A model generated the notes under the pieces. It was not told the DNA's origin and made no database searches. It worked only from the letters and a program-made list of their open reading frames with translations. Source: a virus (taxonomy: Duplodnaviria > Heunggongvirae > Uroviricota > Caudoviricetes). From it: DNA of 60,273 nt. Each line of letters begins with the position of its first letter. Position 1 is the first letter of the stretch. This document shows positions 12,861-60,273 of this stretch, piece after piece. Location of the stretch: positions 1-60,273 of the IMG/VR virus record IMGVR_UViG_2778261541_000006. One strand, written 5' to 3'. The position numbers and the translations under genes were made by a program.

Positions 12861-15566
<2,706 letters not shown>

Positions 15567-25423: not shown

Positions 25424-25457
25424 ATTGCTCTAATAAATTTGATTTATTAGAGCAAAT
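25424..25457. promoter_or_regulatory. C1 operator pair upstream of icd-ant module 1
   Basis: ATTGCTCTAATAAATTT followed head-to-head by an inverted near-copy (ATTTATTAGAGCAAAT); matches the asymmetric 17-bp P1 C1 operator consensus. Confidence 0.6.
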
Positions 25458-25619
25458 AAACTACTATTGGACGCCAGACTATTGATCTTCCTGTTGTTCA
25501 GGCTTATAGTTCCTACGTCGTAGCAAATTCTGCGACCGGGTTTAGCAGCCTGAATGTACATGCGGACAACCGCAGATTTCCGATATTGCGGTATTTTTAT
25601 GTCCGTAAAACCGCGTTAC

Positions 25620-25700
25620 GCCCGAATTATGGTGGGGCGTGATGGGGAGGCTTCGGCCTGCTGGTTTCATGTACGCCAGTCTGCTAACCCCGTCACGTCC
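25620..25700 (+). ncRNA. candidate c4-like antisense RNA
   Basis: Segment containing CATGTAC and CTGCTAA, complementary to two copies each of GTACATG and TTAGCAG upstream (25542-25561) and at the icd RBS (25710-25749); extent approximate. Confidence 0.35.
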
Positions 25701-25757
25701 TGCCACCCGTTTAGCAGCGGGTAGCAGGTTGTTAAACCTGTACATGAGGCCGTAACT

Positions 25758-25979
25758 ATGGTTAATGCCAATCCTTGCGCACGCCCTGAATTTATCTGGC
25801 GCTTTTACTCCTGCCAGAAACGTCACTATCACTTCGTTATCGCACCAACAGAAGATGAGGCACGTTCTCAGCTTCCGGATGCTCCCTGTATTTTCTCTGC
25901 CCGCTTTTCTACCGATTTGCGCAATTCTCTCAGTTACTGGTGCCTCCCTGTTAACGCTTCTGCTCAGGAGGGGCTATGA
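25758..25979 (+). CDS. Icd-like small protein, translationally coupled to ant
   Basis: 73-aa ORF overlapping the downstream antirepressor start by 4 nt, the arrangement of P1 icd-ant1. Confidence 0.5.
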   Translation: MVNANPCARPEFIWRFYSCQKRHYHFVIAPTEDEARSQLPDAPCIFSARFSTDLRNSLSYWCLPVNASAQEGL

Positions 25980-27088
25980 GAACGTCATTAGTCACCCGTG
26001 AAGAGATGATCGAGGCAATTGAACAGCACACTGCCTGTATCAGTACCAGGGATATACCAGGCGTTATTGCCAACTACTTCATGATCACCAAACAACTTTA
26101 CCGGAGAAAGGACAAGAACGCGGTTCACCGCATTCTTCTAACTGATATCCGTGAATACCTGCTCGAACAGGGTCGTCTTGATTATGCAACCGTAACCGCC
26201 GAAGCACGCAAGGAGGCACACAGAATGAAAGCAACTAACGTTAAATCAGAAAAAATTCATGCACCTTCAGTTCAGGAATCGGAGCTGGTGGTTGTTCAAA
26301 ATCAGCCGGATGAAATTCCCGTTCTGGAATGGCAGGGAGTACGTGTCGTAACAACCGAAACTCTTGCTAAGGGGTACGGAACCGATGAAGGCAATATTCG
26401 TAAAAATTTGTCTTGCAACTCCGATCGCTTTGAAGAAGGTAAACACTACTTTCTTTTAACTGGTTCAAAATTAAGAGAATTTAAGAACAGAGTTACTTTT
26501 AGTAACTCTGTTGGTAAGAACGCCAGAAACCTCACTCTCTGGACGGAACGCGGCGCAGCCCGCCACGCTAAAATGATCGAAACCGATCAGGCATGGGCAT
26601 TCTTTGAAAAACTGGAAGACAGCTACTTCCGGCAAAAAGAACAGCAACCGGTCGCAATCCCTCAGACGCTTCCCGAAGCTCTGCGCCTGGCTGCCGAGCT
26701 GGCTGAACAAAAGCAACTTCTGGAACAGAAAGCCCACCAGCTAAATCAGCAGCTGGTGGCCGCAGCCCCTAAGGTCGATTTTGCCGACCGGGTATCAGTG
26801 GCTAAGGGGATCCTGATTGGGAATTTTGCAAAGGTTGTTGGACTTAAGCAAAATGCGCTGTTTGCCTGGTTACGGGAGAACGGCATCCTGATTGCGTCCG
26901 GCGGACGTAAAAATGTACCGTTTCAGCAGTACATAAACGCCGGATATTTCACAGTGAAAGAAGTGGTGCTGGATGATGAAGATGGCTATCAGATACGGCT
27001 GACGCCTCAATTAACGGGTAAAGGCCAGCAGTGGTTGACGCGTAAACTGCTCGATGCTGGCTTGTTAAAACCGGTGGCGGCTGAATGA
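25976..27088 (+). CDS. phage antirepressor (ORF6N N-domain plus KilA-C/Ant C-domain), copy 1
   Basis: 370-aa ORF; central motif IPVLEWQGVRVVTTETLAKGYG and C-terminal region VSVAKGILIGNFAKVVGLKQNALFAWLRENGIL are characteristic of antirepressor families. Confidence 0.65.
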   Translation: MRTSLVTREEMIEAIEQHTACISTRDIPGVIANYFMITKQLYRRKDKNAVHRILLTDIREYLLEQGRLDYATVTAEARKEAHRMKATNVKSEKIHAPSVQESELVVVQNQPDEIPVLEWQGVRVVTTETLAKGYGTDEGNIRKNLSCNSDRFEEGKHYFLLTGSKLREFKNRVTFSNSVGKNARNLTLWTERGAARHAKMIETDQAWAFFEKLEDSYFRQKEQQPVAIPQTLPEALRLAAELAEQKQLLEQKAHQLNQQLVAAAPKVDFADRVSVAKGILIGNFAKVVGLKQNALFAWLRENGILIASGGRKNVPFQQYINAGYFTVKEVVLDDEDGYQIRLTPQLTGKGQQWLTRKLLDAGLLKPVAAE

Positions 27089-27092
27089 TTAA

Positions 27093-27115
27093 AAAAGGCG
27101 GCCTTTCGGCCGCCA
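27093..27115 (-). terminator. terminator for the cre-side transcript
   Basis: Hairpin GGCGGCC-TTTC-GGCCGCC preceded on the plus strand by an A run, i.e. followed by a T run on the minus strand. Confidence 0.4.
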
Positions 27116-27329
27116 ATGATGTCAAGGAGTTAAGTAATGGCTCGTCTTCGTAGTTGACAAAAACCGCGGCTCAATTATAGCAATAAATTAGAGCAATGGT
27201 AGATATTTTGTTTATCGCGAATCATATTTTTTCACTTCAGTACCAGTGTGCTATACTCCTTCTTGATTGATTGGATGCGGAATACAAACCCGCTCTTTTG
27301 TGCAGCCTGGCTCCTTGCCAGGCTTTTTT

Positions 27330-27641
27330 TTACTTCATCATGGAAGCTGTTAACGCTTTGGACCTTGCTGAACTGATTGAAAGGACATTGTTAACCTTAC
27401 CCAAGAGTTCGCCAAACTCAGACATCACTTTAGCAAAACCGCGCCGTGCTTCTTCCTCGGTGGCATTCATCACGAAATGTTCAGCACTACGCATACTTTT
27501 GACAGGGAACGCAACGGATATTGAGTCAATATCAGGCATCCTGTCGCTCAACTTTACAGTGACAATGACGGCTGGCGACTGAATATTAGTGCTTACAGAC
27601 AGCACTACATATTTTCCGTCGATGTTGAAATCCTTTCTCAT
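27330..27641 (-). CDS. hypothetical protein downstream of cre (cra-like position)
   Basis: 103-aa ORF co-directional with and just downstream of cre; competes with an overlapping plus-strand ORF (27271..27582); position-based call only. Confidence 0.3.
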   Translation of the reverse strand: MRKDFNIDGKYVVLSVSTNIQSPAVIVTVKLSDRMPDIDSISVAFPVKSMRSAEHFVMNATEEEARRGFAKVMSEFGELLGKVNNVLSISSARSKALTASMMK

Positions 27642-27691
27642 ATGTCACCATAAATATCAAAGAATCAGAGCAATCCTTTGCGCGTTAATGG

Positions 27692-28723
27692 CTAATCGCC
27701 ATCTTCCAGCAGGCGCACCATTGCCCCCGTTTCACTATCCAGGTTACGAATGTAGTTCATGACAATATTTACGTTGGTCCAGCCACCAGCTTGCATGATC
27801 TCCGGTATTGAAACTCCGGCGCGGGCCATATCTCGCGCGGCACCGACACGGGCACTGTGTCCAGACCAGGCCAGGTATCTCTGGCCAGAGTCATCCTTAG
27901 CGCCGTAAATCAATCGATGAGTTGCTTCAAAAATCCCTTCCAGGGCGCGAGTTGATAGCTGGCTGGTGGCAGATGGCGCGGCAACACCATTTTTTCTGAC
28001 ACGGCAAAACAAGTAGTTATTCGGATCATCAGCCACACCAGAGACAGAAATCCATCGCTCGACCAGTTTAGTTACCCCCAGGCTAAGTGCCTTCTCTACA
28101 CCTGCGGTGCTAACCAGCGTTTTCGTTCTGCCAATATGGATTAACATTCTCCCACCGTCAGTACGTGAGATATCTTTAACCCTGATCCTGGCAATTTCGG
28201 CTATACGTAACAGGGTGTTATAAGCAATCCCCAGAAATGCCAGATTACGTATATCCTGGCAGCGATCGCTATTTTCCATGAGTGAACGAACCTGGTCGAA
28301 ATCAGTGCGTTCGAACGCCAGTGCCTGTTTTGCACGTTCACCGGCATCAACGTTTTCTTTTCGGATCCGTCGCATGACCAGTGAAACAGCATTACTGTCA
28401 CTTGGTCGTGGCAGCCCGGACCGACGATGAAGCATGTTTAGCTGGCCCAAATGTTGCTGGATAGTTTTTACTGCCAGACCGCGCGCCTGAAGATATAGAA
28501 GATAATCGCGAACATCTTCAGGTTCTGCGGGAAACCATTTCCGGTTATTCAACTTGCACCATGCCGCCCACGACCGGCAAACGGACAGAAGCATTTTCCA
28601 GGTATGCTCAGAAAACGCCTGGCGATCCCTGAACATGTCCATCAGGTTCTTGCGAACCTCATCACTCGTTGCATCGACCGGTAATGCAGGCAAATTTTGG
28701 TGTACGGTCAGTAAATTGGACAT
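27692..28723 (-). CDS. cre: Cre tyrosine site-specific recombinase
   Basis: 343-aa translation (MSNLLTVHQNLPALPVDATSDEVRKNLMDMFRDRQAFSEHTWK ... MVRLLEDGD) matches P1 Cre as I recall it. Confidence 0.97.
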   Translation of the reverse strand: MSNLLTVHQNLPALPVDATSDEVRKNLMDMFRDRQAFSEHTWKMLLSVCRSWAAWCKLNNRKWFPAEPEDVRDYLLYLQARGLAVKTIQQHLGQLNMLHRRSGLPRPSDSNAVSLVMRRIRKENVDAGERAKQALAFERTDFDQVRSLMENSDRCQDIRNLAFLGIAYNTLLRIAEIARIRVKDISRTDGGRMLIHIGRTKTLVSTAGVEKALSLGVTKLVERWISVSGVADDPNNYLFCRVRKNGVAAPSATSQLSTRALEGIFEATHRLIYGAKDDSGQRYLAWSGHSARVGAARDMARAGVSIPEIMQAGGWTNVNIVMNYIRNLDSETGAMVRLLEDGD

Positions 28724-29141
28724 TTAACACTCAGATAATGGTTTTAAGTAAAGTGTACAGGATTGGCTCTGCCTTTACCTGTTTATGGTTCTCGTCATAG
28801 AAACGCCAGCGACCGCGCGTGCGTTCTATTTTCTCTTCACCGCGCGATAATGACAGTTGGCAACTATCACGATCAAACCATTTTGCCCGCCAGTAACCAC
28901 GGTTTTTCTCAAGCTCAAGATGAGTGGACACTTTAGCAGCTGAATATCCCAGTTTTCACCTCTGATTGATTGGTGGTGCTAAGTGCGCTACGCGAAATCT
29001 GGAGCACTAACACTGCCAACATTTCGCAGATTTTACGTAGCGCAACCTTGATCAAATGATCAAGTGATCACTATTTGACCTGATAAGGTATTGAACTGTA
29101 TGGATTTACAGGTAAATTAATCATGTTCAATAACCCTTAAG

Positions 29142-29175
29142 ATAACTTCGTATAATGTATGCTATACGAAGTTAT
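29142..29175. other. loxP: loxP recombination site
   Basis: Exact 34-bp ATAACTTCGTATA-ATGTATGC-TATACGAAGTTAT, upstream of cre. Confidence 0.97.
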
Positions 29176-29220
29176 CAGGTCCGAAGAGGAGTTTACGTCC
29201 AGCTGCGCACAAAAATCAAG

Positions 29221-29318
29221 AATTATTAGAGCAATAATTTTTGAGAGAAAAATCCCACTCCACCAGCCAAAAACTGGATTGTTTTTCATAGTTGTTTGAC
29301 AATTGCTCTAATAAATTA
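29221..29318. promoter_or_regulatory. C1 operators in the coi-c1 control region
   Basis: AATTATTAGAGCAAT (29221-29235, reverse orientation) and ATTGCTCTAATAAATTA (29302-29318) between loxP and coi. Confidence 0.6.
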
Positions 29319-29556
29319 TAGTTTTGCCGCCGTTTCGTAATACGACTTTGGATTCACTATTTAATGTGTCTTCAGCGTTGTAGAGCGGCTCAGAAGGAAA
29401 TGAGCAAACAGGGAAACCTTATACAACGGCATTACAGCTATGCATTGCTCATCTTACACACAGCGCAATGTTGTTAGATTACCCCAGCATGGATCATGGG
29501 TGAAACAGTAGGTCAGAGCTTCAGGCTCTGTGTTGTCAATACAGTGAGGCATAATT

Positions 29557-29766
29557 ATGGCTTTCATTCAACCAACCATCGACGACGTTAGACATTGCTC
29601 TAACGCTTTATCTGTAGACCCTGCCGAAACCGACGCTGCCCGCGCCATTGCTGAACACTACTCAAAGATATCCAATCAGGAGTACCGCATCACCCAAGAC
29701 GACCTGGATGACCTCACTGACACAATCGAATATCTCATGGCAACTAACCAGTTAGACTCACAATAA
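29557..29766 (+). CDS. coi: Coi, C1 inactivator
   Basis: 69-aa ORF immediately upstream of c1 on the same strand; size and position match P1 Coi. Confidence 0.85.
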   Translation: MAFIQPTIDDVRHCSNALSVDPAETDAARAIAEHYSKISNQEYRITQDDLDDLTDTIEYLMATNQLDSQ

Positions 29767-29876
29767 ATGCACTAATAAATCTATTATTTTTGTTTGATCC
29801 CTCTATAATATAGGTCAGTAATGACCGGTTTTCTCAGCCGGGCGTTATTGACCATGTCAATTCTGGAGGAGGATCA

Positions 29877-30728
29877 ATGATAAATTATGTCTACGGCGAA
29901 CAACTGTACCAGGAGTTCGTCAGCTTCAGGGATCTCTTTCTAAAAAAAGCTGTTGCACGCGCCCAACACGTTGATGCCGCCAGCGACGGTCGTCCTGTAC
30001 GCCCGGTTGTCGTTCTACCGTTCAAAGAAACAGACAGCATTCAGGCTGAAATTGATAAATGGACTTTAATGGCGCGGGAACTGGAACAGTACCCAGACCT
30101 CAATATCCCAAAGACTATTTTATATCCTGTGCCTAACATCCTTCGCGGTGTGCGTAAGGTTACGACTTATCAGACAGAAGCTGTGAACAGCGTCAACATG
30201 ACCGCTGGCCGCATTATTCATCTGATTGATAAGGACATTCGCATCCAAAAAAGCGCGGGGATCAATGAGCACAGTGCGAAATACATAGAGAACCTGGAAG
30301 CAACAAAAGAGCTAATGAAGCAGTACCCAGAGGATGAAAAATTCCGTATGCGCGTACACGGCTTTAGCGAAACAATGCTGCGCGTCCACTACATTTCCAG
30401 TAGCCCTAACTACAATGATGGTAAATCAGTTAGTTACCATGTGCCACTGTGTGGCGTGTTTATCTGCGATGAAACTCTCCGTGATGGAATTATCATCAAC
30501 GGTGAATTCGAAAAAGCAAAATTTAGCCTTTATGACTCCATAGAACCGATCATCTGCGACCGCTGGCCGCAAGCAAAAATATATCGCCTGGCAGATATTG
30601 AAAATGTAAAAAAACAAATTGCCATCACTCGCGAAGAGAAAAAGGTTAAGTCAGCCGCATCAGTTACGCGCAGCCGTAAAACCAAGAAGGGGCAGCCAGT
30701 AAACGACAACCCCGAAAGCGCGCAATAA
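29877..30728 (+). CDS. c1: C1 repressor of lysis
   Basis: 283-aa translation beginning MINYVYGEQLYQEFVSFRDLFLKKAVARAQ, matching P1 C1 as I recall it. Confidence 0.95.
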   Translation: MINYVYGEQLYQEFVSFRDLFLKKAVARAQHVDAASDGRPVRPVVVLPFKETDSIQAEIDKWTLMARELEQYPDLNIPKTILYPVPNILRGVRKVTTYQTEAVNSVNMTAGRIIHLIDKDIRIQKSAGINEHSAKYIENLEATKELMKQYPEDEKFRMRVHGFSETMLRVHYISSSPNYNDGKSVSYHVPLCGVFICDETLRDGIIINGEFEKAKFSLYDSIEPIICDRWPQAKIYRLADIENVKKQIAITREEKKVKSAASVTRSRKTKKGQPVNDNPESAQ

Positions 30729-30760
30729 ATTATGCCCGGCATCAACCGGGCATTCTTCCA

Positions 30761-32073: not shown

Positions 32074-32393
32074 ATTGGCAGCCTCCTTAGACGTTGGTAT
32101 GTAACCACCGCAGAAGAGACCAATCTTGCTGGCGGTGGACTGTACGGAGTTGGCCTTACTGGCGTCCAAGGTAACCAGCCTACCCGAAGGTAGCCCCATA
32201 CAGCCCACCATTGTAGATGGTGTGCGTGTACGCCGATACAAAAAAAGACGCGAGCGGCGTCTGTATCGCCTTAGACTTAAGCGGGAGGCCAATCCCGGCA
32301 CCCGTTTTAATGAGGTGCCTGATAAGCATAAACCGAAAATGCCTCAAGGCGCAAGAGGTCAGGTTCAATGTAACATCGGTAGCTAAAAAACAC

Positions 32394-32410
32394 AATTTAT
32401 TAGAGCAAAT
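32394..32410. promoter_or_regulatory. C1 operator upstream of icd-ant module 2
   Basis: AATTTATTAGAGCAAAT immediately beyond the pacB stop, at the head of the minus-strand module. Confidence 0.55.
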
Positions 32411-32412
32411 AT

Positions 32413-33897
32413 TCATTCATTAAGCCATGCCAGAGCTTCATCAACCTGCGCTTCGTCTTCGACGCTAAGCACTTCGTCCTGGGGAACATAATCCGCCAGC
32501 ATAGCGAAACAATATGTATCCCAATGGTCTGGTGAGTGCAGATTGAGTTTTTTCTTCATATCCTCCTTACTCATCACCTTCCATTGACCTGCGGAGTTAA
32601 TACCTACAGGTATTTTAGACGCTTCCTCAATGGTTGCATTACCCTTATCCAGTCTCATACGACCAGATTTTACGGCCTCTGCGGCTTGAACGTTGGCATA
32701 AGCACGTTTATCAAAGTACAGGCTCTTATCTTCACGGCTATGCATCTTTTTACCCCAGCGTATACGCTGTACGGTAATACCATAATACTCGTACATCAGA
32801 TCCGCCGTTGCTTTACCCAGCCCATCGCCGTCTATCGCTATGGTGATATTTGGGAATCGCTCAGGATTACATTCTGCGAAAATTTTGGCGGCAAGCTGCG
32901 TTTCTGTAACGTCTGTGTATTCCAGCATTCGATAGTTGATTACACGGCGTTTATTTCGCTGGCCGGACACCATCATGATATTGATAACGGACTTATCCCG
33001 TCCCGTACCACCAGCAACGTCCACACATGCAAGCCAGCCCCATCCTTTGGCAATCTTGACTTTCCGCCGCGTTGCACGTTCAACCTCATCACGTCCAAGA
33101 AGGAAGCCATCCTGTGATTTAGGGAATAGGCCGCGCACCTTAATCATGTACATAGGGTTATCACGCCCGCCGTACTCCGCCAGCTTCATTTTGATAAATG
33201 CTGGCGTTACCAGCGGTGATTCCTCACTGTTAAGCGTGATCGCCGTATAAACGCCATCAGGGTTACCAGGACGCTTGGCCAGTTTATGGTGTGTATCGTA
33301 GAAATAGCCGCTTGGGCGTGTAGGCTGTGACAGTAATAAGATGCGGTTATCCTGTCCGGTAAGAGCACCGGTGATGATACCGAAAGCTCTATCACTGACA
33401 CCGGAGGCTTCATCGATAATATACAGAAGATGATCTGCGTGTTCACCGGCGAGAGCTTCTTCACTTCCCAGACGAAAGCCCTTCGGTACTACAGTCCATA
33501 CACCTTTACCTGTAACCTCATAGAAAGCGGTTTCTGTCAGAACAAAATAATCAGCAAGCCATGGGAAACGGCTGGTGGCAGTAGCCCAGTTTATCTTGAT
33601 GTACTTGAATATACCGGTCATTACCTGCTGAATTTTGTTCGCAACGATAATGGCGCGGGCACCGGGATACATGATTATGAACAACATGATCATGATAGAA
33701 GTCATGTCTGATTTCCCGGTACCGTGACCAGACGAAACAGATGTCTTGCTACCCTGTTCCTGCACAGACTCAATAATCAGATCCTGCTGCCAGGTAGGTG
33801 TTTTGCCGAACAAAACATCAGCGGCAGCAATCCAGTCATAACGATATAGCGCCACCAGCTCGCGCCAACGTGGATCCGTTACGCAACTTCTGGCCAT
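32413..33897 (-). CDS. pacB: terminase large subunit PacB
   Basis: 494-aa ORF overlapping pacA stop by 1 nt; ATPase-like motifs ([19 protein letters not shown]). Confidence 0.9.
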
Positions 33898-35090
33898 TAA
33901 TCATCATCCCCGTATAGCTTGCGGGTAACTTCTTCGTCTTCCTCCTCGTCTTCGTCCAGGTCTTGTTCCAGCCATGGGTCGTTTGATACACCTTCAGTAT
34001 CAACATCTCCATAACCGCCTGTATCAACGATATCGGCGATTTCTTCCCTACGCTGCTCAATCCACAATGCGGCATCGGCGCGGCGGTTGGCGGCCCGTTC
34101 TCGCGCAACTTTGTCCAGATCTTCAAGAGAAGGGCCACCGACGGCTGTTTGCCTTTCCTCATCATCGGTATTGGTCTTAGGAGCACGCAGATCGGCTTTG
34201 ATTTGCTCCAGCATCAGGGGCGGCACTTTCCCGCCATGCGCCTCGATGAATTCAGCTGCTTCCAGCACTGACCAGTTATTTTCACGCTTTCGTTCGTATG
34301 CCAGCTTAACAATGCCAGCTTGCCCCATAGACAAAGCGTGCTTTTCCGCCTCCCGGCTTTCTTTTCGATAGTTATTCCGGATGCTGTAAATGGTGTTGAT
34401 CAGACTGCTTATCTGCGCGGAACAGCTGTTTAGCATGCTCGCGATACGGTATTCAGGCGGAGTACCTTCATCATCGTCTTTTTGCTGATCGCGCATTTCC
34501 TGCACCAAGCGAATACACGTATCCCTGGCGTTCTCCAGCATAAGGAGATGAGAAAGAGACTTTTCCAGAAGAGTGGTTTCCAGAACATCGGCCCCGGACC
34601 GACGCAACATAGCGCGCGCGGCCTTCCGCGCTTCAACGTTATCTATCAGGTAATCGCCAGCTTCGAATTCAAAGCGTTCACCATCATCATCCAGGGTGTC
34701 GCGTTCCAGGCGATCACGTAAGGTACGGTGGGCGCGGGTGATCACGTCATGATCATCAGAGCGATCATTTATGCGCTTATTTTGGCGCTTAGCGTTCTCG
34801 ACTGCGGCACTGACAACAGCATTAACTCTTTGTTTTTCAGCCATTTCAGTCGCAATGTGATCACCCGCACGTTGATCATTAGCGTGATCAATGATCATGC
34901 TTTTTAGTGGTTTCCTGACAGGCTTATTTGGCTTACGACTGTCCGCTGTTCCGGTGTCTTCTTTGAATGCACGGAGATAACGACGTGCGGTGTTTGGGTT
35001 GAGATTAAACTCGGCGGCATATTGTGCGATGGTGTAACCACCCTCTCGCGCCAGGCGAGCAAAATTCTTCTTGTGATCGTCCCAGGTCAC
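33897..35090 (-). CDS. pacA: terminase small subunit PacA
   Basis: 397-aa ORF with N-terminal HTH-like region and acidic C-terminus; contains the pac site in its 5' part. Confidence 0.9.
34741..34905 (-). other. pac: pac packaging site with TGATCA/G hexamer clusters
   Basis: Two clusters of GATC-containing hexamers (TGATCA, TGATCAT...) about 100 bp apart inside pacA; matches the P1 pac architecture. Confidence 0.7.
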
Positions 35091-35176
35091 TTATGCTTCC
35101 TTTCGTATAAAACTCTTTTTGACGCGAGGGTAACGAAAGTCACATGTCAAAAGGCCCGGAACGGGCAAGCAATCAA

Positions 35177-35629
35177 TCAGATACGTGCGGATGTGGCATT
35201 ACCGTAATGACGGTGCTGACGGACCACCTTATTGAAAAGTTGACGCGCCATCACCCAAGGCTGGTGCTCCCGGCGTTCCTTTTCGTCCTGCGTCATATAG
35301 AGTTCGTTCTGGAGTTTTTCATCAAACCGGCGCGGAGCGCGGCTGCGGCGAAAGAATTCAGGATTCAGAGAGTGGATCTGAAATCTACGTGGGCGTGTAC
35401 TGTCATCAATCAAAACAGACGAATACTTAGACACAGCGATAGCCTTTAAGCGCAGATAAACATCGCGCTTATCGACATCCAGATGCGGGTATTCCTTTTC
35501 AAGAATTGCTGCGAGTTCTTTCGCTGATAGAAGAGATTTAGTGCGGATCATGTAATCCGCAATCTCGTACGATGTTATTCGTGAGTGATTTATTTCCATG
35601 AAGTGGCGTCCCTGCCAGTTAAGTAACAT
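35177..35629 (-). CDS. lpa: Lpa late promoter activator (gp10)
   Basis: 150-aa ORF directly upstream of pacA; size and position match P1 Lpa. Confidence 0.8.
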   Translation of the reverse strand: MLLNWQGRHFMEINHSRITSYEIADYMIRTKSLLSAKELAAILEKEYPHLDVDKRDVYLRLKAIAVSKYSSVLIDDSTRPRRFQIHSLNPEFFRRSRAPRRFDEKLQNELYMTQDEKERREHQPWVMARQLFNKVVRQHRHYGNATSARI

Positions 35630-35704
35630 CCTGTCACCTACTGATTAGCCCATGTCAACTAATCAACGTCGAATATAATACCCTCGATTAAAGAAATAGC
35701 AATA

Positions 35705-35716
35705 CACTAGAGCAAT
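35705..35716. promoter_or_regulatory. degenerate C1 operator-like site upstream of lpa
   Basis: CACTAGAGCAAT partial match to the operator core. Confidence 0.3.
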
Positions 35717-35717
35717 T

Positions 35718-36761
35718 TTATCTAACACTAGACGAATGACTTGTGATAGCGCCGACTCCAAGCGCGTAATCAAAGAACAATCGTTGATGCATCGCCAGCC
35801 TACCGTGCGTCTTCTCCCAATTATCGCGGTCACGCTCAATATCACGCTGGCATGACTGGCACAGAGGAATAGCATAAATGTCATGCGCGCATAATCGACT
35901 ATGACGAACGATATAAGGCGTAATGTGAGCGCCAGCTCCCGCAGCTCCACAGCCACAGCATGGACGGGAAGCCACAAAGTCCATGTACTCGGGCAATTTT
36001 AGCGATTGAAGTTTTGGTATTTTGAAATGCGCCATACCTGGGTCGGAGTCAACATCCACAGGGCATACTTTTGCACGCATCGGCGCGGCGCGTTCTTCCA
36101 TCATCTGAACATATGCTGTAGCGCGATCGTCATACGGGCGAATATCCGCCTCTTTCAGAGGTCCGCTATCCTGCGGAGTAGCCTTCATCTTATTTATTGA
36201 TATGCGGCAGACTTCTTCCGGCATCAGGTGCATCATGTTGCGCATGAAAGCCCACCAGCACAGCTCCTGAATACTTAAATCATGGCTATTTGAAAGGCCC
36301 ATTTCCTGACGGGCGACATCCAGTATCCAGTTAACGCGATTATTGTGCAGCGTTTCTTTCAGCTCATTAAAACCACGCATCCGGTAATGGTTATCGTGAT
36401 GCCAGCACAACAACACCGCGCTATTGTCTCGTTCAGCGTGGACAATATGGTTGTCACACCAACTACGATCTGCGGCCTGGCATTGCCCCTCTTTCCTACG
36501 CAACCACGCCACCAGCGCGTCAATTCCACCAATACGGCGAAACAGTTCATCGCTGTTAAAAAACGGCTGCAACGCCTCATTTGTTGCCATAGTTTGCTCG
36601 GAAACAACGAGGCCGTCGTCCATGTGCTCGATTAACTCACGCGGCACCGGCTCCATAATAAATTTACGGCCAGCCTCCACCAGCTTTCTGACTTCCTGAT
36701 CCACTTTGAATGTGGCGACGCCAAGCTCTTTTTGTACAAAGGGAGTAATTACGGCTTTCAC
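35718..36761 (-). CDS. PdcB-like protein (post-doc position), cysteine-rich C-terminus
   Basis: 347-aa ORF downstream of doc; C-terminal Cys/His cluster (PCCGCG ... HITPY ... PLCQSCQ) suggests an HNH-like zinc-binding fold. Confidence 0.4.
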
Positions 36762-36788
36762 ATCACACCTTTCATCACTGATTGGGCT

Positions 36789-36989
36789 TTATCTGCTGCC
36801 CGGCATTCTCTGTTTAAGCACAACCATTTCCTGACGGCATAACACAGCAATAGCGGTCCTAGCACCAATTTGCTTACCAACCAGGTATTGCTTTACCTCG
36901 CGGCGACTCACGCCATCAAGAAGCATCTTTAACGCTTCACGGGACAATTTGTTGTATTTACGTGCCATTAATCTACTCCGCAGAACCAT
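36789..36989 (-). CDS. small basic protein (pdcA-like position)
   Basis: 66-aa ORF overlapping the doc stop region. Confidence 0.3.
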
Positions 36990-37353
36990 ATAATCTACGT
37001 AACGTGTCGGCGACAGAAGATACAGATATCTCGCCAGTCGCAGCGCCTACAGTAAGGTCTGCCAGTTCAGGTGAATCAAATACCTGCACCCCGTTACGGC
37101 GTAGAAATAACAGCGCACTGTTTAGCGCGGTACGCTTATTGGCATCATTGAATATATGCCCTCTCGCAGTAGCCACCAGGTAGGTTGCGGAGACTTCGAA
37201 AAGGTCGGTAATCTCTTCGTACACAACTCTGGCCTGGACTCTCCCGATAATGGCCTCTGCCCTGCCCGGATCTGACATTCCCGGCAGGCCGCCGTAGCGG
37301 TTTATATTCGCATCATGAAGCGCAATAAGTTCTTCCGGTGATATATGCCTCAT
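36973..37353 (-). CDS. doc: Doc toxin (Fic-family kinase)
   Basis: 126-aa translation [25 protein letters not shown] ... matches P1 Doc as I recall it. Confidence 0.95.
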
Positions 37354-37574
37354 TATCGGTTAACCAGTTCCTTGTTGGTGGAGTCCAGGGTGTCGAACAG
37401 GGATGCAAATTCAGCATCCAGCGCCGCTTTTTTGTAGGCTTCGAAAGTAGCCTTACTGACAATTACTGCTGGCTCACGGCCTCTGCGGGTGATTTCAACC
37501 TCTTCCCCGGCTTCAACATTGTTGAGCACTTCAGAAAGGTTGCCGCGCGCGGTACGGAAGTTAATAGATTGCAT
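37353..37574 (-). CDS. phd: Phd antitoxin
   Basis: 73-aa product [40 protein letters not shown] ... matches P1 Phd; stop overlaps doc start by 1 nt. Confidence 0.95.
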
Positions 37575-37740
37575 AAACACCTCGTGTACTCGTTATGTGT
37601 ACACAATTATAAACTTCACAGGCATAAAGCACCAGCACTTTGCGGCTTAACAAACCTCTAGGCAGGTCATTCGTAGGAACTGCTAAAGCATCCAAGTTGC
37701 TGTAGAATCACCGCCAATTACATAAGCCTGAAAGAAGTGG

Positions 37741-39303
37741 ATGAAAATGACAAGTATTCAACAACGTGCAGAGCTTCATCGTCAAATCTGGCAAATTGCT
37801 AACGATGTCAGGGGTTCGGTCGATGGATGGGATTTTAAGCAATACGTTCTGGGCGCACTTTTCTACCGTTTTATCAGCGAAAATTTTTCCAGTTATATTG
37901 AAGCCGGTGATGACAGTATCTGTTATGCGAAACTGAATGACAGCGTAATTACTGATGACATTAAAGACGATGCCATCAAAACCAAAGGTTACTTCATCTA
38001 CCCCAGTCAGCTTTTCTGCAACGTAGCTGCGAAAGCAAATACCAATGACAGACTGAATGCGGATTTAAACAGCATCTTCGTTGCTATCGAAAGTTCTGCT
38101 TACGGTTACCCTTCAGAAGCTGACATCAAAGGTTTGTTTGCTGATTTCGATACTACCAGTAACCGCCTGGGTAACACCGTTAAAGATAAAAATGCCCGCC
38201 TGGCTGCGGTTCTGAAAGGAGTTGAAGGGCTAAAACTTGGTGACTTCCACGAACATCAGATTGACCTGTTCGGTGACGCCTATGAGTTCCTGATTTCTAA
38301 CTATGCGGCAAATGCCGGTAAGTCAGGCGGTGAGTTCTTTACACCGCAGCACGTCTCCAAGCTGATTGCACAACTGGCTATGCACGGGCAGACCAACGTT
38401 AACAAAATCTACGACCCGGCAGCAGGTTCCGGCTCACTGTTGTTGCAGGCTAAAAAGCAGTTTGATAACCATATCATTGAAGAAGGCTTTTTCGGACAGG
38501 AAATCAACCATACGACCTATAACCTGGCACGTATGAACATGTTTTTGCACAACATCAACTACGACAAGTTTGATATCAAGCTGGGCAATACGCTGACTGA
38601 GCCGCACTTCAGAGATGAAAAACCGTTTGATGCCATCGTTTCTAACCCGCCGTATTCGGTGAAATGGATTGGCAGCGATGACCCGACGCTGATTAACGAT
38701 GAACGTTTTGCCCCGGCTGGCGTCCTGGCCCCCAAATCCAAAGCTGACTTCGCCTTTGTACTACATGCGCTGAACTATCTTTCGGCCAAAGGTCGCGCTG
38801 CGATTGTTTGCTTCCCGGGTATTTTTTACCGTGGCGGCGCAGAGCAGAAAATCCGTCAGTATCTGGTCGACAATAACTATGTCGAAACCGTGATTTCACT
38901 GGCACCGAACCTGTTCTTTGGCACCACCATTGCCGTAAACATTCTGGTTCTGTCTAAACATAAAACGGATACCAACGTTCAGTTTATTGACGCCAGCGAA
39001 CTGTTCAAAAAAGAGACTAACAACAATATCCTGACCGATGCCCATATCGAACAGATTATGCAGGTATTTTCCAGCAAGGAAGATGTTGCTCATCTGGCAA
39101 AATCTGTCACGTTTGAGGCCGTTGTCGCTAATGACTATAACCTGTCGGTAAGCAGCTATGTGGAAGCGAAAGATAACCGCGAAATTATCGATATCGGTGA
39201 GCTGAATGCTGAGCTGAAAACCACGGTCAGCAAAATCGACCAGTTGCGTAAAGATATTGATGCAATTGTGGCTGAAATTGAAGGCTGCGAGGTGCAGAAA
39301 TGA
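37741..39303 (+). CDS. hsdM: type I restriction-modification methyltransferase subunit HsdM
   Basis: 520-aa ORF with N6-adenine MTase motifs (NPPYS at [10 protein letters not shown]; AdoMet-binding [10 protein letters not shown]). Confidence 0.9.
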
Positions 39304-40508
39304 GCGAGCTGAGCTATCTGGAAAAACTGTTGGATGGGGTTGAGGTTGAGTGGGCAACATTGGGTTCTATGGCAGATATCGGTACTGGAAGCTCAAATCG
39401 TCAGGATGAAAGCGAAAATGGAATTTATCCATTCTATGTTCGCTCAAAGAATATCTTGAAGTCAGATACCTTTGAATTTGATGAGGTAGCAATAGTCATT
39501 CCTGGTGAAGGTGGAATTGGCGACATATTTCACTATGTTGAGGGGAAATATGCTCTACATCAAAGGGCGTATAGAATTCGTATCACAACTAATGCCGTAG
39601 ACACGAAGTTTTTGTATTACTTCATGTCATCTAGCTTTAAGCAGTACATCTTGACAAAAAGTGTGGGTGCTACCGCCATTTCGATAAGAAAACCCATGCT
39701 GGAAGGATTTAAAGTTCCCATTCCTAGCCCGGACAACCCGGAAAAGTCCCTAGCCATCCAGTCTGAAATCGTTCGGATTCTGGATAAGTTTACTGCACTT
39801 ACCGCTGAGCTAACCGCTGAGCTAACCGCTGAGCTTAACATGCGTAAAAAACAGTACAACTTCTATCGTGACCAGTTGTTGAGTTTTAAAGAGGGGGAGG
39901 TTGAGTGGAAAAGTCTGGAAGATATTGCTTTATTTAGACGGGGTTCATTTCCACAGCCATATGGAAATAGTGAATGGTATGATGGAGAAGGTTGCATGCC
40001 TTTTGTTCAGGTAGCTGATGTGGCTGATTCAGGATTTACATTACACACAAAAACCAAACAACAGATTTCTAAGATTGCACAAAGCAAGAGCGTTTTTGTT
40101 GAGGCTGGAACAATTGTTGTGACACTGCAAGGTACTATTGGTCGAGTAGCAATAACACAGTACGATTGTTATGTGGATAGAACTCTTGCAATATTTACTA
40201 ACTTTAAAGTAAAAATAAACAAAAAATACTTTGCTTATCAACTAAAAGCTAAATTCGATTCAGAGAAAGAATTTGCAAGAGGAAGTACTTTGAAGACAAT
40301 TACAAAAGAAGAGTTTTCTAAGTTCCAATTACCTCTTCCCTCAATAAACGAACAAAATCGTATAGTATCACTATTGGATAAGTTCGATACACTGGCTCAT
40401 TCAATAAAACAAGGTCTCCCGCGTGAAATCGAGTTGCGCCAGAAACAATACGAGTACTATCGTGATTTACTGTTCAGTTTCCCGAAACCTGAAACTGTCA
40501 GTAATTAA
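39300..40508 (+). CDS. hsdS: type I R-M specificity subunit HsdS, type IC (EcoR124-like)
   Basis: 402-aa ORF overlapping hsdM stop by 4 nt; two target-recognition domains separated by a central [12 protein letters not shown] repeat region. Confidence 0.85.
39800..39835 (+). repeat. 3 x 12-bp tandem repeat (ACCGCTGAGCTA) encoding TAEL x3 in the hsdS central conserved region
   Basis: Three direct copies, the third with one substitution; in-frame within hsdS. Confidence 0.8.
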
Positions 40509-40629
40509 TTGACCGTTGCTACCGACCGGGCCACCTTAACATCCGGTCTGTATATAGACTATTTTTTACGTGCCGGAAGTCACTCTTAACGCCCTTCCGA
40601 CCCTTGCCAGACGGCACAAAGGATGCGCT

Positions 40630-43600
40630 ATGACTCATCAAACACACACCATTGCTGAATCCAATAACTTTATCGTTCTTGATAAGTACATCAAAGCTGA
40701 GCAAACAGGCAACAGCTATCAGAGCGAATCGGACCTGGAACAGGAACTGATTCAGGACCTGCGAAATCAGGGCTATGAATTTATATCCGTAAAATCTCAG
40801 TCGGCGATGCTGGCCAATGTTCGACAACAGCTTCAGAGCCTCAATGGTGTGGTGTTTAATGACAGCGAGTGGCGGCGTTTCACGGAGCAGTATCTGGACA
40901 ACCCGAGCGATGGAATTCTGGATAAGACCCGTAAAATCCATATCGACTATATTTGCGACTTTATTTTTGATGACGAGCGACTTGAGAACATCTATTTGAT
41001 AGATAAAAAGAATCTCATGCGCAATAAGGTGCAGATTATCCAGCAGTTTGAACAGACGGGTTCTCATGCTAACCGTTATGACGTCACGATCCTGGTTAAT
41101 GGTTTACCGCTGGTGCAAATCGAACTAAAAAAACGCGGGGTGGCGATTCGTGAGGCTTTCAACCAGATACATCGTTACAGTAAAGAGAGTTTTAACAGCG
41201 AAAATTCCCTGTTTAAGTATCTGCAACTGTTTGTCATTTCTAACGGCACCGATACCCGTTATTTTGCCAACACGACAAAGCGCGATAAAAACAGTTTTGA
41301 CTTCACCATGAACTGGGCTAAAGCAGACAATACACTGATTAAAGACCTCAAAGACTTTACCGCTACCTTTTTCCAGAAACATACTCTGCTTAATGTTCTG
41401 GTGAACTACAGCGTTTTTGACAGCAGTCAGACACTACTGGTAATGCGACCGTACCAGATTGCCGCCACCGAGCGCATTCTGTGGAAAATTAAGAGTTCCT
41501 TTACAGCGAAGAACTGGTCAAAACCGGAAAGCGGTGGGTATATCTGGCACACTACCGGTTCTGGTAAAACCCTCACCAGCTTTAAAGCCGCGCGTCTGGC
41601 AACAGAGCTGGACTTTATTGATAAAGTCTTCTTCGTGGTCGACAGGAAAGACCTCGATTACCAGACCATGAAGGAATATCAGCGTTTTTCGCCAGACAGC
41701 GTCAACGGCTCGGAAAATACCGCAGGACTTAAACGAAATCTGGACAAGGACGATAACAAAATTATCGTCACTACTATTCAGAAACTCAATAACCTGATGA
41801 AAGCAGAAAGCGACCTGCCTGTATATAATCAGCAAGTGGTGTTTATATTTGATGAATGCCACCGCAGCCAGTTTGGAGAAGCGCAGAAAAACCTGAAGAA
41901 GAAATTCAAACGCTATTATCAGTTTGGTTTTACCGGCACACCTATTTTCCCGGAAAACGCCTTAGGCTCAGAAACGACCGCCAGCGTATTTGGTCGTGAA
42001 TTGCATTCGTATGTAATTACCGATGCGATTCGTGATGAAAAAGTGCTCAAATTCAAGGTGGACTACAACGATGTGCGGCCACAGTTTAAGTCTTTAGAGA
42101 CAGAAACTGACGAGAAAAAACTAAGTGCGGCTGAAAATCAGCAGGCGTTTCTTCATCCCATGCGTATACAGGAAATTACGCAATATATTCTGAATAACTT
42201 CCGCCAGAAGACGCACCGTACTTTCCCTAGCGCAAAAGGTTTTAATGCTATGTTGGCAGTGAGCAGCGTGGATGCTGCAAAAGCCTATTACGCGGCGTTT
42301 AAACGGTTACAAGAGGAAGCCGCTAATAAATCTGCAACTTATAAACCGCTGCGTGTTGCGACAATCTTCTCCTTTGCCGCTAATGAAGAACAAAATGCCA
42401 TTGGTGAAATTTCCGATGAAACTTTTGATACCAGCGCAATGGACAGCAGTGCTAAAGAGTTTCTTGACGCTGCAATTCGTGAGTATAACAGCTATTTTAA
42501 AACTAACTTCAGCACCGACAGTAACGGTTTTCAGAACTACTATCGCGATTTAGCCCAACGGGTTAAAAATCAGGATATCGATCTGTTAATTGTCGTGGGG
42601 ATGTTTTTAACTGGCTTCGATGCTCCAACATTGAACACGCTATTCGTCGATAAAAACCTGCGTTTTCACGGCTTGATGCAGGCATTTTCCCGCACCAACC
42701 GTATTTATGATGGAACTAAAACCTTCGGTAATATCGTCACTTTCCGGGATCTGGAACGCTCAACTATTGATGCCATAACGCTGTTTGGTGACAAAAACAC
42801 CAAAAATGTGGTTTTAGAAAAGAGTTATGCAGAGTATATGGAAGGCTTTACTGATGCTGCCACTGGTGAAGCTAAGCGCGGCTTTATGGCAGTAGTTTCA
42901 GAACTGGAACAACGGTTCCCTGACCCTGCCAGTATTGAAAGTGAAAAAGAGAAGAAAGACTTCGTTAAACTGTTTGGTGAATACCTGCGTGCCGAGAACA
43001 TCCTGCAAAACTATGATGAATTTGCCACGCTGAAAGCCCTGCAACAAATCGATCTTAGCGATCCTGTTGCGGTAGAAAAATTCAAAGAAGAACATTATGT
43101 GGATGATGAAAAGTTCGCTGAATTGCAAACGATTCGTCTCCCTGCTGAACGCAAGATTCAGGATTATCGTTCTGCCTATAACGATATTCGTGACTGGCAG
43201 CGCCGCGAGAAAGAAGCTGATAAAAAAGAAAAATCAACCACTGACTGGGATGACGTGGTTTTTGAGGTCGATTTGCTGAAGTCTCAGGAAATAAACCTGG
43301 ATTATATCCTTGGACTGATTTTCGAACACAACAGACAAAATAAAGGCAAGGGCGAAATGATCGAAGAGGTCAAACGCTTAATTCGTTCAAGCCTGGGGAA
43401 CCGGGCGAAAGAGGGCCTGGTGGTCGATTTTATTCAGCAAACGAACCTGGATGATTTACCAGACAAAGCCAGTATCATTGAGGCATTCTTTACGTTTGCT
43501 CAACGCGAACAGCAACGTGAAGCAGAAGCATTGATAAAAGAAGAAAATCTCAATGAAGATGCAGCAAAACGCTATATTCGCACGTCTTTAAAACGCGAAT

Positions 43601-43746: not shown

Positions 43747-43765
43747 CCCAATTCGTGTTTTTCTT

Positions 43766-43794
43766 GCGGGTTCTTAATTAAACCCGCAAGAGCT
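43766..43794. terminator. hairpin terminator after hsdR
   Basis: Inverted repeat CTTGCGGGTT-CTTAATTAA-ACCCGCAAG just after the hsdR stop. Confidence 0.4.
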
Positions 43795-43998
43795 CGTGGG
43801 GTTCCAAATGGCTAATATACTCCCCTTACCCATGCGCGACGATGCCGCCAAAAGTGATAGAGAACAGCCAGAAATAGATCGCGGTCATAATGATTTTGAA
43901 TGCCGTGTTCATATCTTCAGCTCCTGTGATTGATTGGATATATGCCGCGCCCCTTGCGGCATGTTTTTATTTTCACACACTCTGTTTTAAAAATCAAG

Positions 43999-44013
43999 AT
44001 TTATTAGAGCAAT
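43999..44013. promoter_or_regulatory. C1 operator
   Basis: ATTTATTAGAGCAAT, reverse-orientation operator motif. Confidence 0.5.
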
Positions 44014-44519: not shown

Positions 44520-44591
44520 ATGCCCTCCTCATTGGACGAAAAAAATGCTGGTGGGAGCACTCCACCAGCATTAAAAGTGACACTGTAACTA

Positions 44592-58229: not shown

Positions 58230-58446
58230 TAATTAATTTCCTGGTTTTTTCACGAAAAAAGACTACTGCGAAAGCCGGGTAAATGAGCGCGAGAAGGACT
58301 CCCAACAATACAAGTATTGTGCTGTTAGATGAGATCATATTTGGCAAAAGCCAAACATACAGAACCAGTGACACAATCAAACAGAGGACGGCATAAATAT
58401 ATAACCGCACCCATAGCGTTCGACATTTGTTCGGATTGTTCTGCAT
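58210..58446 (-). CDS. upl: small membrane protein upstream of plp (Upl)
   Basis: 78-aa ORF with two hydrophobic helices, overlapping plp start. Confidence 0.4.
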   Translation of the reverse strand: MQNNPNKCRTLWVRLYIYAVLCLIVSLVLYVWLLPNMISSNSTILVLLGVLLALIYPAFAVVFFREKTRKLINEKNVD

Positions 58447-59099
58447 CCTCTCACTCCATTATTTAACGAATAAAAAAACTGCGGTGCCGGGTGCCTCCCG
58501 GTGTCCTTTGGCTGGTTATCCACCGTGGACGGGGAAACAAGGAGAAATGAATGGACTGATATAACCATTTCCCCGCGTGCGCTTAGCCGCATTCACCGCA
58601 ACGGAAAGAGCATTCTTGGTGGACCTGTAGATTGGGATATGAACCCGTTACAGGAGAATGCTCTTACCTGTTACGTGCTCCGTTTCGTGGAGCTAACGGC
58701 GGGTGATCGGGCCGCACCAGGCTGGACTTATTTCAGCGTTATGCTCATGCCAGAGAATCAAACTGTGATGGTCGGTGCTGAACTCCGACACAGGGTTGTA
58801 GCAAGCCCCGCAAAGCGCGCACTACTGTAGTTGCGGCACATCAGCCTGTGCATTCACCACAATGTTGAGAACACTGGTTGTCACGCTGCAACGCAACATT
58901 TATTCATAGATTGGGATATGACCCCGTTACGCCAGTGTTCTCAACGTTGTAGTGCCGGTTACGGTTCCGGCCAGGCCTCTTCCTCAACGGGTTGTTCTCC
59001 ATACGGACTACCGTTTATTGGTCGTTCCTGCGGTTTATGTTGTGAAGCCAGATGCTTATCTTCTGGTTGCTTCAAAGAGCTGCACTTCATCACAACGGT

Positions 59100-59170
59100 A
59101 AGGGTACTTCGTAGGGATTCGAACCCTCTGCCAAGCTCGGCGATCTCCGACGTCGCAAAATACCCTTACC
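59100..59170 (-). other. degenerate tRNA-like element
   Basis: 10-bp terminal stem (GGTAAGGGTA / TACCCTTACC) and a T-arm-like AGGGTTCGAATCCCT, but no D-arm, anticodon arm or CCA. Confidence 0.25.
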
Positions 59171-59178
59171 TGTTGTGC

Positions 59179-59254
59179 TGGTGCCGATTAACGGACTCGA
59201 ACCGCTGACATCCTGCTTACAAGGCAGGCGCTCTACCAACTGAGCTAAACCGGC
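59179..59254 (-). tRNA. tRNA-Thr (UGU)
   Basis: Minus-strand 76-nt cloverleaf GCCGGTT-TAGCTCAGTTGGTAGAGC-CCTGC-CTTGTAA-GCAGG-...-GGTTCGAGTCC-...-CCA. Confidence 0.85.
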
Positions 59255-59256
59255 AT

Positions 59257-59332
59257 TGGCGATGGTGGATGGATTTGAACCATCGACCCGTTGATTAACA
59301 GTCAACCGCTCTAACCGCTGAGCTACACCATC
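59257..59332 (-). tRNA. tRNA-Asn (GUU)
   Basis: Minus-strand 76-nt cloverleaf GATGGTG-TAGCTCAGCGGTTAGAGC-GGTTGA-CTGTTAA-TCAAC-...-GGTTCAAATCC-...-G-CCA. Confidence 0.85.
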
Positions 59333-59989
59333 ACTTGCCGGGTACGTCTCCGGCGAGGGCTTCCACCTCCGTATGCTTTTCGGCGCACCGCGCCCTGGCT
59401 GCAATTCGGTAACAGGGGATGCATAACCCTGGCTTCCAGCGTGATTAGCGCTTTCAGCATGACGGGATATACCCGTAAATTCGTGGAACTGTACCCAAAG
59501 TGCTGTTAAGCACCGCTGTTACGCTGAAAAGAAGACGCAACAGGAAAGGACGCTGACCAACAGATGGCCCCTTCTCGTTCATCTGGTTAATCACACCAGC
59601 GCCCTTACCTGTTGTGCCTCCCCGCTCCCTAATACACAGACGGGGACACTCTGCGGTCGATTTTTTGACGGGGGACGACTCATACCCCGTGGCGTCTGGC
59701 TTCTTAGGCCGCTACCATCATCAGATCATCGTTTGCATTTACTTTAATGGTCAGTTTCTAAACCGCCGCAAAGTCGCTAACCATGACGAAAACCCTGAAA
59801 AAAACGCCCACCCGAAGATGGGCAAACTGGAAGCTCGTAACGCACTTCGGTGTTGCCACTTAGGCGTATGGTCAACCTGGCAACTCGGCGTCATGAGGGG
59901 GAAGGAGTCACTACCCCGCCATACTTGCCGCCGCGCCTGTCGCGGCTAACAGCTAAATCGCTCTATAAATCACGATTCATTGAGGCGAT

Positions 59990-60017
59990 ATTACACTAAT
60001 AAATTTATTAGAGCAAT
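59990..60017. promoter_or_regulatory. overlapping C1 operator pair
   Basis: ATTACACTAATAAATTT (degenerate) overlapping AAATTTATTAGAGCAAT (perfect reverse consensus). Confidence 0.5.

Positions 60018-60176: not shown

Positions 60177-60273
<97 letters not shown>

Follow-up and report, generated by a model that had tools for sequence, protein, structure and literature searches.

The stretch analysed here (the window) is positions 1-60,273 of the virus record IMGVR_UViG_2778261541_000006, which by its sequence is a P1-like (Punavirus) phage-plasmid or plasmid prophage; its megablast matches over 25-49 kb at 95-98% identity are the Punavirus genomes P1, P7, SJ46, RCS47 and vB_EcoM-673R5. Our subject is the set of operators for the phage repressor C1 that are scattered along it. 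The consensus of the C1 operator, its dispersed occurrence and the roles of C1, the co-repressor Lxc, the inactivator Coi and the antirepressor Ant have been summarised (PMC8546580), and the regulation of Ant by C1 and the C1 network have also been covered elsewhere (PMC8201110). The repressor and co-repressor genes are both present in the window:

29877-30728, plus strand: c1, repressor gene; product 282/283 identical to P1 C1.100 (99.6%), differing at residue 193
22871-23119, plus strand: lxc (bof), C1 co-repressor gene; product 82/82 identical to P1 Lxc

The coi region is 96% identical to P1 at the DNA level, with identical operators. Since C1 and Lxc are nearly identical to those of P1, the binding specificity is assumed to be P1-like.

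An earlier note, made by reading the sequence, had listed 13 copies of the operator motif between 25,424 and 60,017 as a window-wide C1 regulon and proposed a position-weight-matrix scan with the published operator set as a check. This set is the GenBank annotation of AF234172 and AF503408, and we built the matrix from the 20 'phage repressor C1' binding sites annotated in P1 (AF234172). The scan gave 15 sites of at least 18 bits, against 0.11, 0.05 and 0.18 expected under order-1, order-3 and order-5 Markov models, respectively (300 simulations per order). Similarly, the consensus ATTGCTCTAATAAATTT had 15 matches at up to three mismatches, compared with 0.30 on average and never more than 2 in 100 dinucleotide shuffles. 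The excess over chance is about 50- to 300-fold, and only the range of 10-14 bits is near background (10 matches versus about 5-6 expected). All 15 strong sites are intergenic or overlap only the ends of coding sequences, according to the coordinates of open reading frames (ORFs) and the P1 annotation. Every one of the 13 positions of the earlier note matched a site 0-5 nt away; 12 of them score 20.0-27.4 bits (25424 plus, 25440 minus, 27181 minus, 29219 minus, 29302 plus, 32393 minus, 43997 minus, 46089 plus, 46138 minus, 49768 plus, 59990 plus and 60001 minus), while the one called weak at 35705 is Olpa (35700-35716, minus strand, 13.9 bits). The list itself was real but incomplete: it missed Ossb, which lies outside its range, as well as Omat, Oc1a, Oc1b, Oc1c and Oppp.

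Sixteen sites of the window pair one-to-one with operators annotated in AF234172, 11 of them with an identical 17-mer:

10503-10519, minus strand: Ossb (Op21), ATTGCTCTAATTAATTT, 25.7 bits, ahead of ssb; P1 21015-21031 has the identical sequence
25346-25362, minus strand: Omat-like (Op2b), TATGCACTAATAAATAT, 19.5 bits, upstream of mat; one base off P1
27181-27197, minus strand: Oref (Op2a), ATTGCTCTAATTTATTG, 20.0 bits, with the Pref promoters; one base off P1
29219-29235, minus strand: Oc1e (Op99e), on the cra/cre side of immC; identical to P1, 94/97 flanking bases
29302-29318, plus strand: Oc1d (Op99d), at promoter P1coi; 97/97 bases identical to P1
29594-29610, plus strand: Oc1c (Op99c), weak by the matrix at 14.6 bits; unchanged from the annotated P1 operator
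29766-29782, plus strand: Oc1a, 23.1 bits, of the bivalent Oc1ab (Op99ab) at Pc1; identical to P1
29777-29793, minus strand: Oc1b of the same bivalent operator; one base off P1
35700-35716, minus strand: Olpa (Op94), ATTGCTCTAGTGTATTG, with A10 changed to G, 13.9 bits versus 19.2 in P1
43997-44013, minus strand: OpmgT (Op88), 26.1 bits; identical to P1
46089-46105, plus strand: OpmgRb (Op86b), controlling pmgR-pmgS-pap by its P1 annotation; identical to P1, 97/97
46138-46154, minus strand: OpmgRa (Op86a), for the same block; identical to P1, 97/97
48861-48877, plus strand: Oppp (Op83), TATGTACTAATTAATTT, 13.9 bits versus 20.1 in P1, with two changes including C5 to T
49768-49784, plus strand: O26 (Op82), between pmgL and gene 26; identical to P1, 96/97 flanking bases
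59990-60006, plus strand: Obanb of the bivalent Oban (Op72ab); the pair is identical to P1 68667-68694
60001-60017, minus strand: Obana of the same bivalent operator

Around the sites from immC to O26, 78-97 of 97 bases (the operator with 40 nt on each side) are identical to P1; for most of the orthologous sites the figure is 84-97. These near-identical flanks make the annotated P1 promoters transferable to the window, and the overlap or abutment of orthologous sites with promoters is taken from the P1 annotation via sequence identity. P1 homology starts exactly at the Omat 17-mer, the GC core of which is not kept in E. albertii relatives. Thus far the earlier note was right that its motifs are P1 C1 operators: nine of the 13 are identical to P1 or one base off at the same position, and Olpa is the tenth. 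Its assignment of targets has to be corrected in part. What it took for cargo at 44-50 kb belongs to the P1 core, with the genes pap, pmgS, pmgR, pmgQ, ppp and pmgP/O/N/M/L (98.5% identical), and the operators there are the known Op88, Op86a/b, Op83 and Op82. Likewise, the sites at 59990 and 60001 do not belong to an icd-ant module; they form the bivalent ban operator, which heads the ban operon read on the minus strand. Two of the listed sites, Oref and OpmgT, have lost the targets that they have in P1 (see below).

Three sites are without a positional counterpart in P1, namely 25424 (plus), 25440 (minus) and 32393 (minus). They head two extra c4-icd-ant cassettes, here called A and B, each with a C4 RNA, an icd ORF and an Ant protein with a Pfam ANT domain, so the two icd-ant modules seen by the earlier note do exist:

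25424-27099, plus strand: cassette A, replacing ref between mat and c8
25424-25440, plus strand: first operator of cassette A (Op51 equivalent), perfect consensus, 27.4 bits
25440-25456, minus strand: second, inverted operator of cassette A, TTTGCTCTAATAAATCA, 20.6 bits, in the promoter spacer
25482-25510, plus strand: P51b-type sigma-70 promoter TTGATC-17-TATAGT, downstream of the cassette A operators
25504-25556, plus strand: a1/b1 targets of cassette A
25625-25710, plus strand: C4 RNA of cassette A
25758-25979, plus strand: icd of cassette A
25976-27088, plus strand: ant of cassette A
32409-30750, minus strand: cassette B, between c1 and pacB
32393-32409, minus strand: operator of cassette B, TTTGCTCTAATAAATTG, 21.6 bits, 3 nt past the pacB stop codon
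32318-32241, minus strand: isrK-type a1/b1 leader of cassette B with terminator
32215-32128, minus strand: C4 RNA of cassette B
32073-31852, minus strand: icd of cassette B
31855-30761, minus strand: ant of cassette B

The gap between c1 and pacB, where cassette B lies, is 24 bp in P1. The C4 RNAs match the Rfam family RF01695 at 71.7 bits (A) and 75.9 bits (B), with a gathering score of 45, and cassette A also matches RF03163 at 53.2 bits. The leader of cassette B (32241-32318, minus strand) matches the isrK family RF01394 (60.8 bits; gathering score 50), and a terminator-like hairpin with a T-run lies at 32262-32246, just upstream of the C4 RNA. In both cassettes, the icd ORF is 73 aa long and overlaps the start of ant. 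The Ant proteins are 370 aa (A) and 364 aa (B), with Pfam ANT at E = 1.9e-32 and 8.1e-31, respectively; Ant A has ANT and ORF6N domains and is 56% identical to P1 Ant1 and 90% identical to Ant B. An inverted repeat of about 1.3 kb (89-97% identity), made up of the icd-ant parts, flanks c8-cre-lox-coi-c1. We considered inversion of the c8-cre-lox-immC segment via these repeats and rejected it: a chimeric query for the inverted isomer found no record above the normal 82% coverage in PLSDB, leaving no evidence for it among the assembled plasmids there. The two-cassette arrangement itself is complete in 46 PLSDB plasmids.

The first operator of cassette A overlaps the -35 hexamer TTGATT (25439-25444) of a P51a-like promoter with a -10 hexamer TACTAT (25462-25467). 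Together with the second operator, at an offset of 16 nt, it makes a 33-bp double operator (25424-25456), which is a 14-bp perfect inverted repeat with a 3-bp spacer. The P51b-type promoter further downstream aligns with the annotated P1 promoter P1c4 (former P51b). In cassette B, the 3' end of the operator overlaps the -35 hexamer TTGTGT (32395-32390), followed by TACATT (32372-32367) as the -10; the P51a-like hexamers of both cassettes were read by eye. An alignment of P1 immI, P7 immI and cassettes A and B places all four operators in one register, with the 3' end abutting TTGnnT as the -35 and a hexamer resembling a -10 placed 17 nt further on. The aligned P1 counterpart is Op51 with the promoter annotated P2c4 (former P51a).

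These operators are also conserved in relatives. The 25424 operator is kept in 5 related plasmids, and the bases just upstream of it diverge. The exact palindrome of cassette A is found in 14 stretches of IMG/VR, twice in one 103-kb contig, and again in the fourth cassette of the plasmid pO26_98E11_1 (6594-6626 of its stretch). The cassette B operator is present in 28 of 66 P1-like IMG/VR contigs with enough flank; its variation is confined to positions 1 and 12, where genuine P1 operators differ from one another as well, and together with its promoter the operator is the best-conserved non-coding stretch among 29 distinct sequences. Moreover, pO26_98E11_1 has four icd-ant cassettes (at the canonical sim-kilA site, mat-c8, c1-pacB and gp5-dbn), and a C1 operator of at least 21 bits precedes all four. 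Within the window, the gp5-dbn junction carries no cassette. Because the register is that of Op51, the sites are conserved and every cassette of pO26_98E11_1 has an operator, the placement of both antirepressor modules within the C1 regulon is well supported by these comparisons. It is also observed that backbone and cassettes meet exactly at operator 17-mers (at the edge of Omat, 25362/25363, and at 32409-32413 for cassette B). Shared operators may serve as crossover points for module exchange.

C1 would be only one of two layers of control over these modules. Heinrich, Velleman and Schuster, as cited in PMC8546580, reportedly found in 1995 that C1 of P1 acts on the c4-icd-ant operon through its upstream promoter only and that the decisive block on Ant synthesis in the lysogen is C4 RNA. 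Since the P51b-type promoter of cassette A lies beyond the operators, the same division is suggested here. Lysogenic repression of the icd-ant modules, as proposed in the earlier note, therefore stands insofar as a C1 operator in the Op51 register precedes each of them, and needs the C4 RNA as the other layer.

With regard to this second layer, the recognition loops of C4 and both copies of the target covary in cassettes A and B. The elements, compared by eye from the alignment, are as follows:

P1 C4: a element TTGACAG, b element TGTTAGTG
P7 C4: a element TTAGCAG, b element TGATTGTG
Cassette A C4: a element TTAGCAG (P7-type), b element TGTACATG (neither P1 nor P7)
Cassette B C4: a element TTGGCCT / TTGGTCT, b element GTCTAAGG

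The C4 codes of A and B thus differ from each other and from those of P1 and P7. Calculated RNA duplex energies gave no discrimination between cognate and non-cognate C4/target pairs, the stem sequences being dominant.

In the mechanism suggested by these features, C1 from the coi-c1 operon (29.3-30.7 kb) would bind each operator, as is established in P1 and expected here from the near-identity, and Lxc (22.9-23.1 kb) would tighten the binding. Occupied operators, overlapping or abutting sigma-70 promoters, would silence ssb, mat, lpa (for the late-promoter activator), gene 26 and the ban helicase operon, as well as the pmgR-pmgS-pap, pmgN-ppp-pmgQ and pmgL-pmgM blocks; the coi-c1 and cra-cre promoters would be shut off by C1 in autoregulation. 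Inactivation of C1 by Coi and the antirepressor Ant proteins would then release the whole set together. With Op51-type operators of their own, cassettes A and B would allow C1 to damp transcription of its own antagonists, as the homology of layout suggests, and the C4 antisense RNA of each cassette would block translation of its icd and ant.

We hold with high confidence that these are the operators of P1 C1, 17 bp long, asymmetric and dispersed, inherited with the P1 backbone. Judged from the sequence, the motif set of the window is the already known P1 C1 regulon, because most sites match annotated P1 operators in both sequence and position. Some points weigh against extending this to every site. 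The case for C1 in this element is built wholly on homology. The P51a-like hexamers of the cassettes are weak (8/12 in A and weaker in B), and both fail a scan for promoters with 9 of 12 consensus positions, which listed only the P51b-type promoter at the cassettes. The second operator of cassette A is degenerate in 3 of the 5 relatives compared, and among the five it is intact only in pTA13-2. Olpa has G at position 10, where A is found in all 20 annotated P1 operators, and is positioned upstream of lpa (35177-35629, minus strand); either lpa is probably less tightly repressed here or the G is a sequencing error. The lpa site of the earlier note lies where P1 has this operator, but with a change at an invariant position repression cannot simply be assumed. 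Finally, Oref and OpmgT are without their P1 targets, so by the sequence not every site marks a regulated operon in this element.

Both of these orphans can be traced. In the case of Oref, ref was replaced by the oppositely oriented cassette A, and the operator faces the 3' end of ant; P1 homology there ends at the position of the P1 ref start codon, after covering the Pref promoters as well as a hairpin with its T-run. In the case of OpmgT, the P1 targets from pmgT onwards were replaced by the converging hsdMSR genes, and the operator faces the 3' end of hsdR. The orphan units are 27097-27197 (Oref/Pref to a bidirectional hairpin at the 3' end of ant A) and 43747-44013 (OpmgT/PpmgT to the 3' end of hsdR). 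If active without C1, the orphan promoters would yield antisense transcripts.

Three rival readings were weighed. Chance matches of an AT-rich word in AT-rich intergenic DNA might explain individual matches below about 14 bits, which are near background, or the one at 24227 (minus strand), but practically not the set as a whole, considering that the excess of strong sites holds even against the order-5 model and most of them are P1-identical in sequence and position. A more serious rival is that the operators are inherited relics, so that the network of a possibly rearranged or defective prophage is partly non-regulatory and the motif count overstates the live regulon. The lost targets of Oref and OpmgT, several segments swapped for cargo and a degenerate site at 27658 (13.3 bits) are consistent with this, and so are the conserved-core substitutions in Olpa and Oppp, which probably weaken binding; the 25-mer with the Olpa variant occurs in 0 IMG/VR contigs, in comparison with 107 for the P1-type 25-mer. 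On the other hand, the key phage ORFs are intact (c1, coi, lxc, lpa, pacAB, ban and the morphogenetic genes), 11 operators are unchanged from P1, and Oref still scores at least 19.6 bits in each of the four other ref-less relatives examined. We therefore regard decay of the network as a rather unlikely account, though one to be taken seriously.

The operators of the two extra cassettes might also be recombination scars, left by crossovers at shared 17-mers and not selected as regulatory sites. In favour of this, P1 homology resumes right at Omat, the cassette B operator is only 3 nt from the pacB stop codon, and the cassettes of relatives lie at four positions, bounded by an operator every time. 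Nevertheless, the Op51 register is kept and the operator is conserved at each insertion site while neighbouring bases vary, which makes scars improbable as the whole explanation; scars and regulatory function are in any case compatible with each other. A further possibility is more tentative. The operators absent from P1 could bound, on the 5' side, a portable unit made up of an Op51-type operator, c4, icd and ant that is stacked by P1-like plasmids, and, no less tentatively, each copy might carry its own C4/target code with all copies wired to the common C1. If this is true, stacked C4 specificities could widen the range of superinfecting P1-like phages whose antirepressor is silenced, the stacking would shield the resident from induction by otherwise heteroimmune relatives, and retained orphan operators would add C1-titrating sites.

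Some weaker or unannotated sites deserve mention. The Oppp variant is also present in pO26_98E11_1, pointing to a feature of the lineage and not a private change. An operator-like site at 15687-15703 (minus strand; ATTGCCCTAATGTATTT, 16.7 bits) lies within the opening codons of darB and 130 bp ahead of prt; its counterpart in P1 (AF234172, 17166-17182) is without annotation. At the same position, pO26_98E11_1, which has no annotated darB, carries a better site (ATTGCACTAATATATTT, 22.8 bits, at 13042 of its stretch). The degenerate site at 27658-27674 (minus strand), with A9 changed to G, is between cre and c8, upstream of c8. Its P1 counterpart (AF234172, 1485-1501) scores 18.1 bits and is unannotated, and those in four related elements score 18.6-21.9 bits. 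By position, this could be a C1 site controlling c8.

The rest of the window is the P1 backbone with cargo inserted. It runs opposite to the P1 numbering, and the following blocks were mapped by blastn against P1 AF234172:

50-23119: lyd, darA, ddrB, ssb, lyz, pro, prt, darB, ulx and lxc (P1 31.8 kb down to 9.75 kb)
24528-25361: mat
27091-29158: ref promoter through c8, cre and cra to lox
29159-30727: immC (coi, c1)
32415-37650: pacB through pacA, lpa, pdcB, pdcA and doc to phd
43822-57383: pap, pmgS through pmgL, then 26, 25, 7, 24, 6, 5, dbn and ban
58480-60219: stretch up to the ban operator and the end of dmt

The cargo occupies known variable regions of P1:

8391-9845, minus strand: HD/HD_assoc phosphohydrolase, a non-P1 insert downstream of ssb
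11588-12796, plus strand: IS605-type TnpB, a non-P1 insert
23161-24465, minus strand: SIR2-like protein with a SIR2_2 domain, a non-P1 insert 57 bp downstream of mat
37741-43746, plus strand: type I restriction-modification system hsdMSR, replacing the P1 humD-to-pmgT segment
57402-58229, minus strand: SPFH/Band 7 protein, within the C1-controlled ban operon, replacing tciABC

In the matrix scan, no operator of at least 18 bits was found directly upstream of the SIR2-like, HD phosphohydrolase, hsdMSR or TnpB genes, and the match within the SIR2-like gene (24227, minus strand, 14.6 bits) is at background level. The SIR2-like gene and the HD phosphohydrolase gene could be co-transcribed from C1-controlled promoters.

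The P1 regulatory backbone is thus kept almost base for base in a wild P1-like plasmid with different cargo. For annotation, the value lies in a complete operator map of the window with the departures from P1 flagged (orphaned operators, a probably weakened lpa operator and extra cassettes). The findings raise no new question about C1, and the new details are limited to three: Op51-type operators travelling with accessory immI cassettes that have new C4 codes, the variant bivalent geometry of cassette A, and the orphaning or weakening of some operators. Stacked immI cassettes that differ in C4 code offer a modest lead on how P1-like phage-plasmids compete through immunity.

The C1 network of P1 and P7 (AF234172, AF503408) comprises the operators Op2a/b, Op21, Op51, Op53, Op55, Op68, Op72ab, Op82, Op83, Op86a/b, Op88, Op94 and Op99a-e. 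The window shares with it the repressor (99.6%), the co-repressor, the 17-bp asymmetric consensus, 16 operator positions with 11 identical sequences, and the 11-nt offset of the bivalent operators at ban and c1. It differs in that Oref and OpmgT are orphaned, Olpa and Oppp are weakened, and the sites at 25424, 25440 and 32393 are extra. Compared with immI of P1 and P7 (Op51-P51a-P51b-c4-icd-ant1/2), the cassettes have the same order of operator, promoter, a1/b1, C4, a2/b2, icd and ant. However, A lies between mat and c8 and B between c1 and pacB, not between sim and kilA, and the C4 loops, the isrK-type leader with terminator in B and the palindromic operator pair with the 16-nt offset in A are different.

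Extra icd-ant or ant insertions have been reported in the P1-like plasmids pSvP1, pTZ20_1P and RCS47 (Venturini et al. 2019, PMC6906374). These are similar to our cassettes in gene content and in the hot spots used, the c8-mat and pacB-c1 junctions. Operators are unmentioned there; what we describe, from sequence only, is the linkage of operator and cassette and the contrast in C4 specificity. The Gifsy-1 locus isrK-orf45-anrP of Salmonella (RF01394) likewise has a terminator-like hairpin before a C4-like RNA and a gene of the antirepressor family. In contrast to that locus, the leader of cassette B stands in a P1 backbone behind a C1 operator. By this similarity, the cassette B leader links the immI layout of P1 type to the isrK locus of Gifsy-1.

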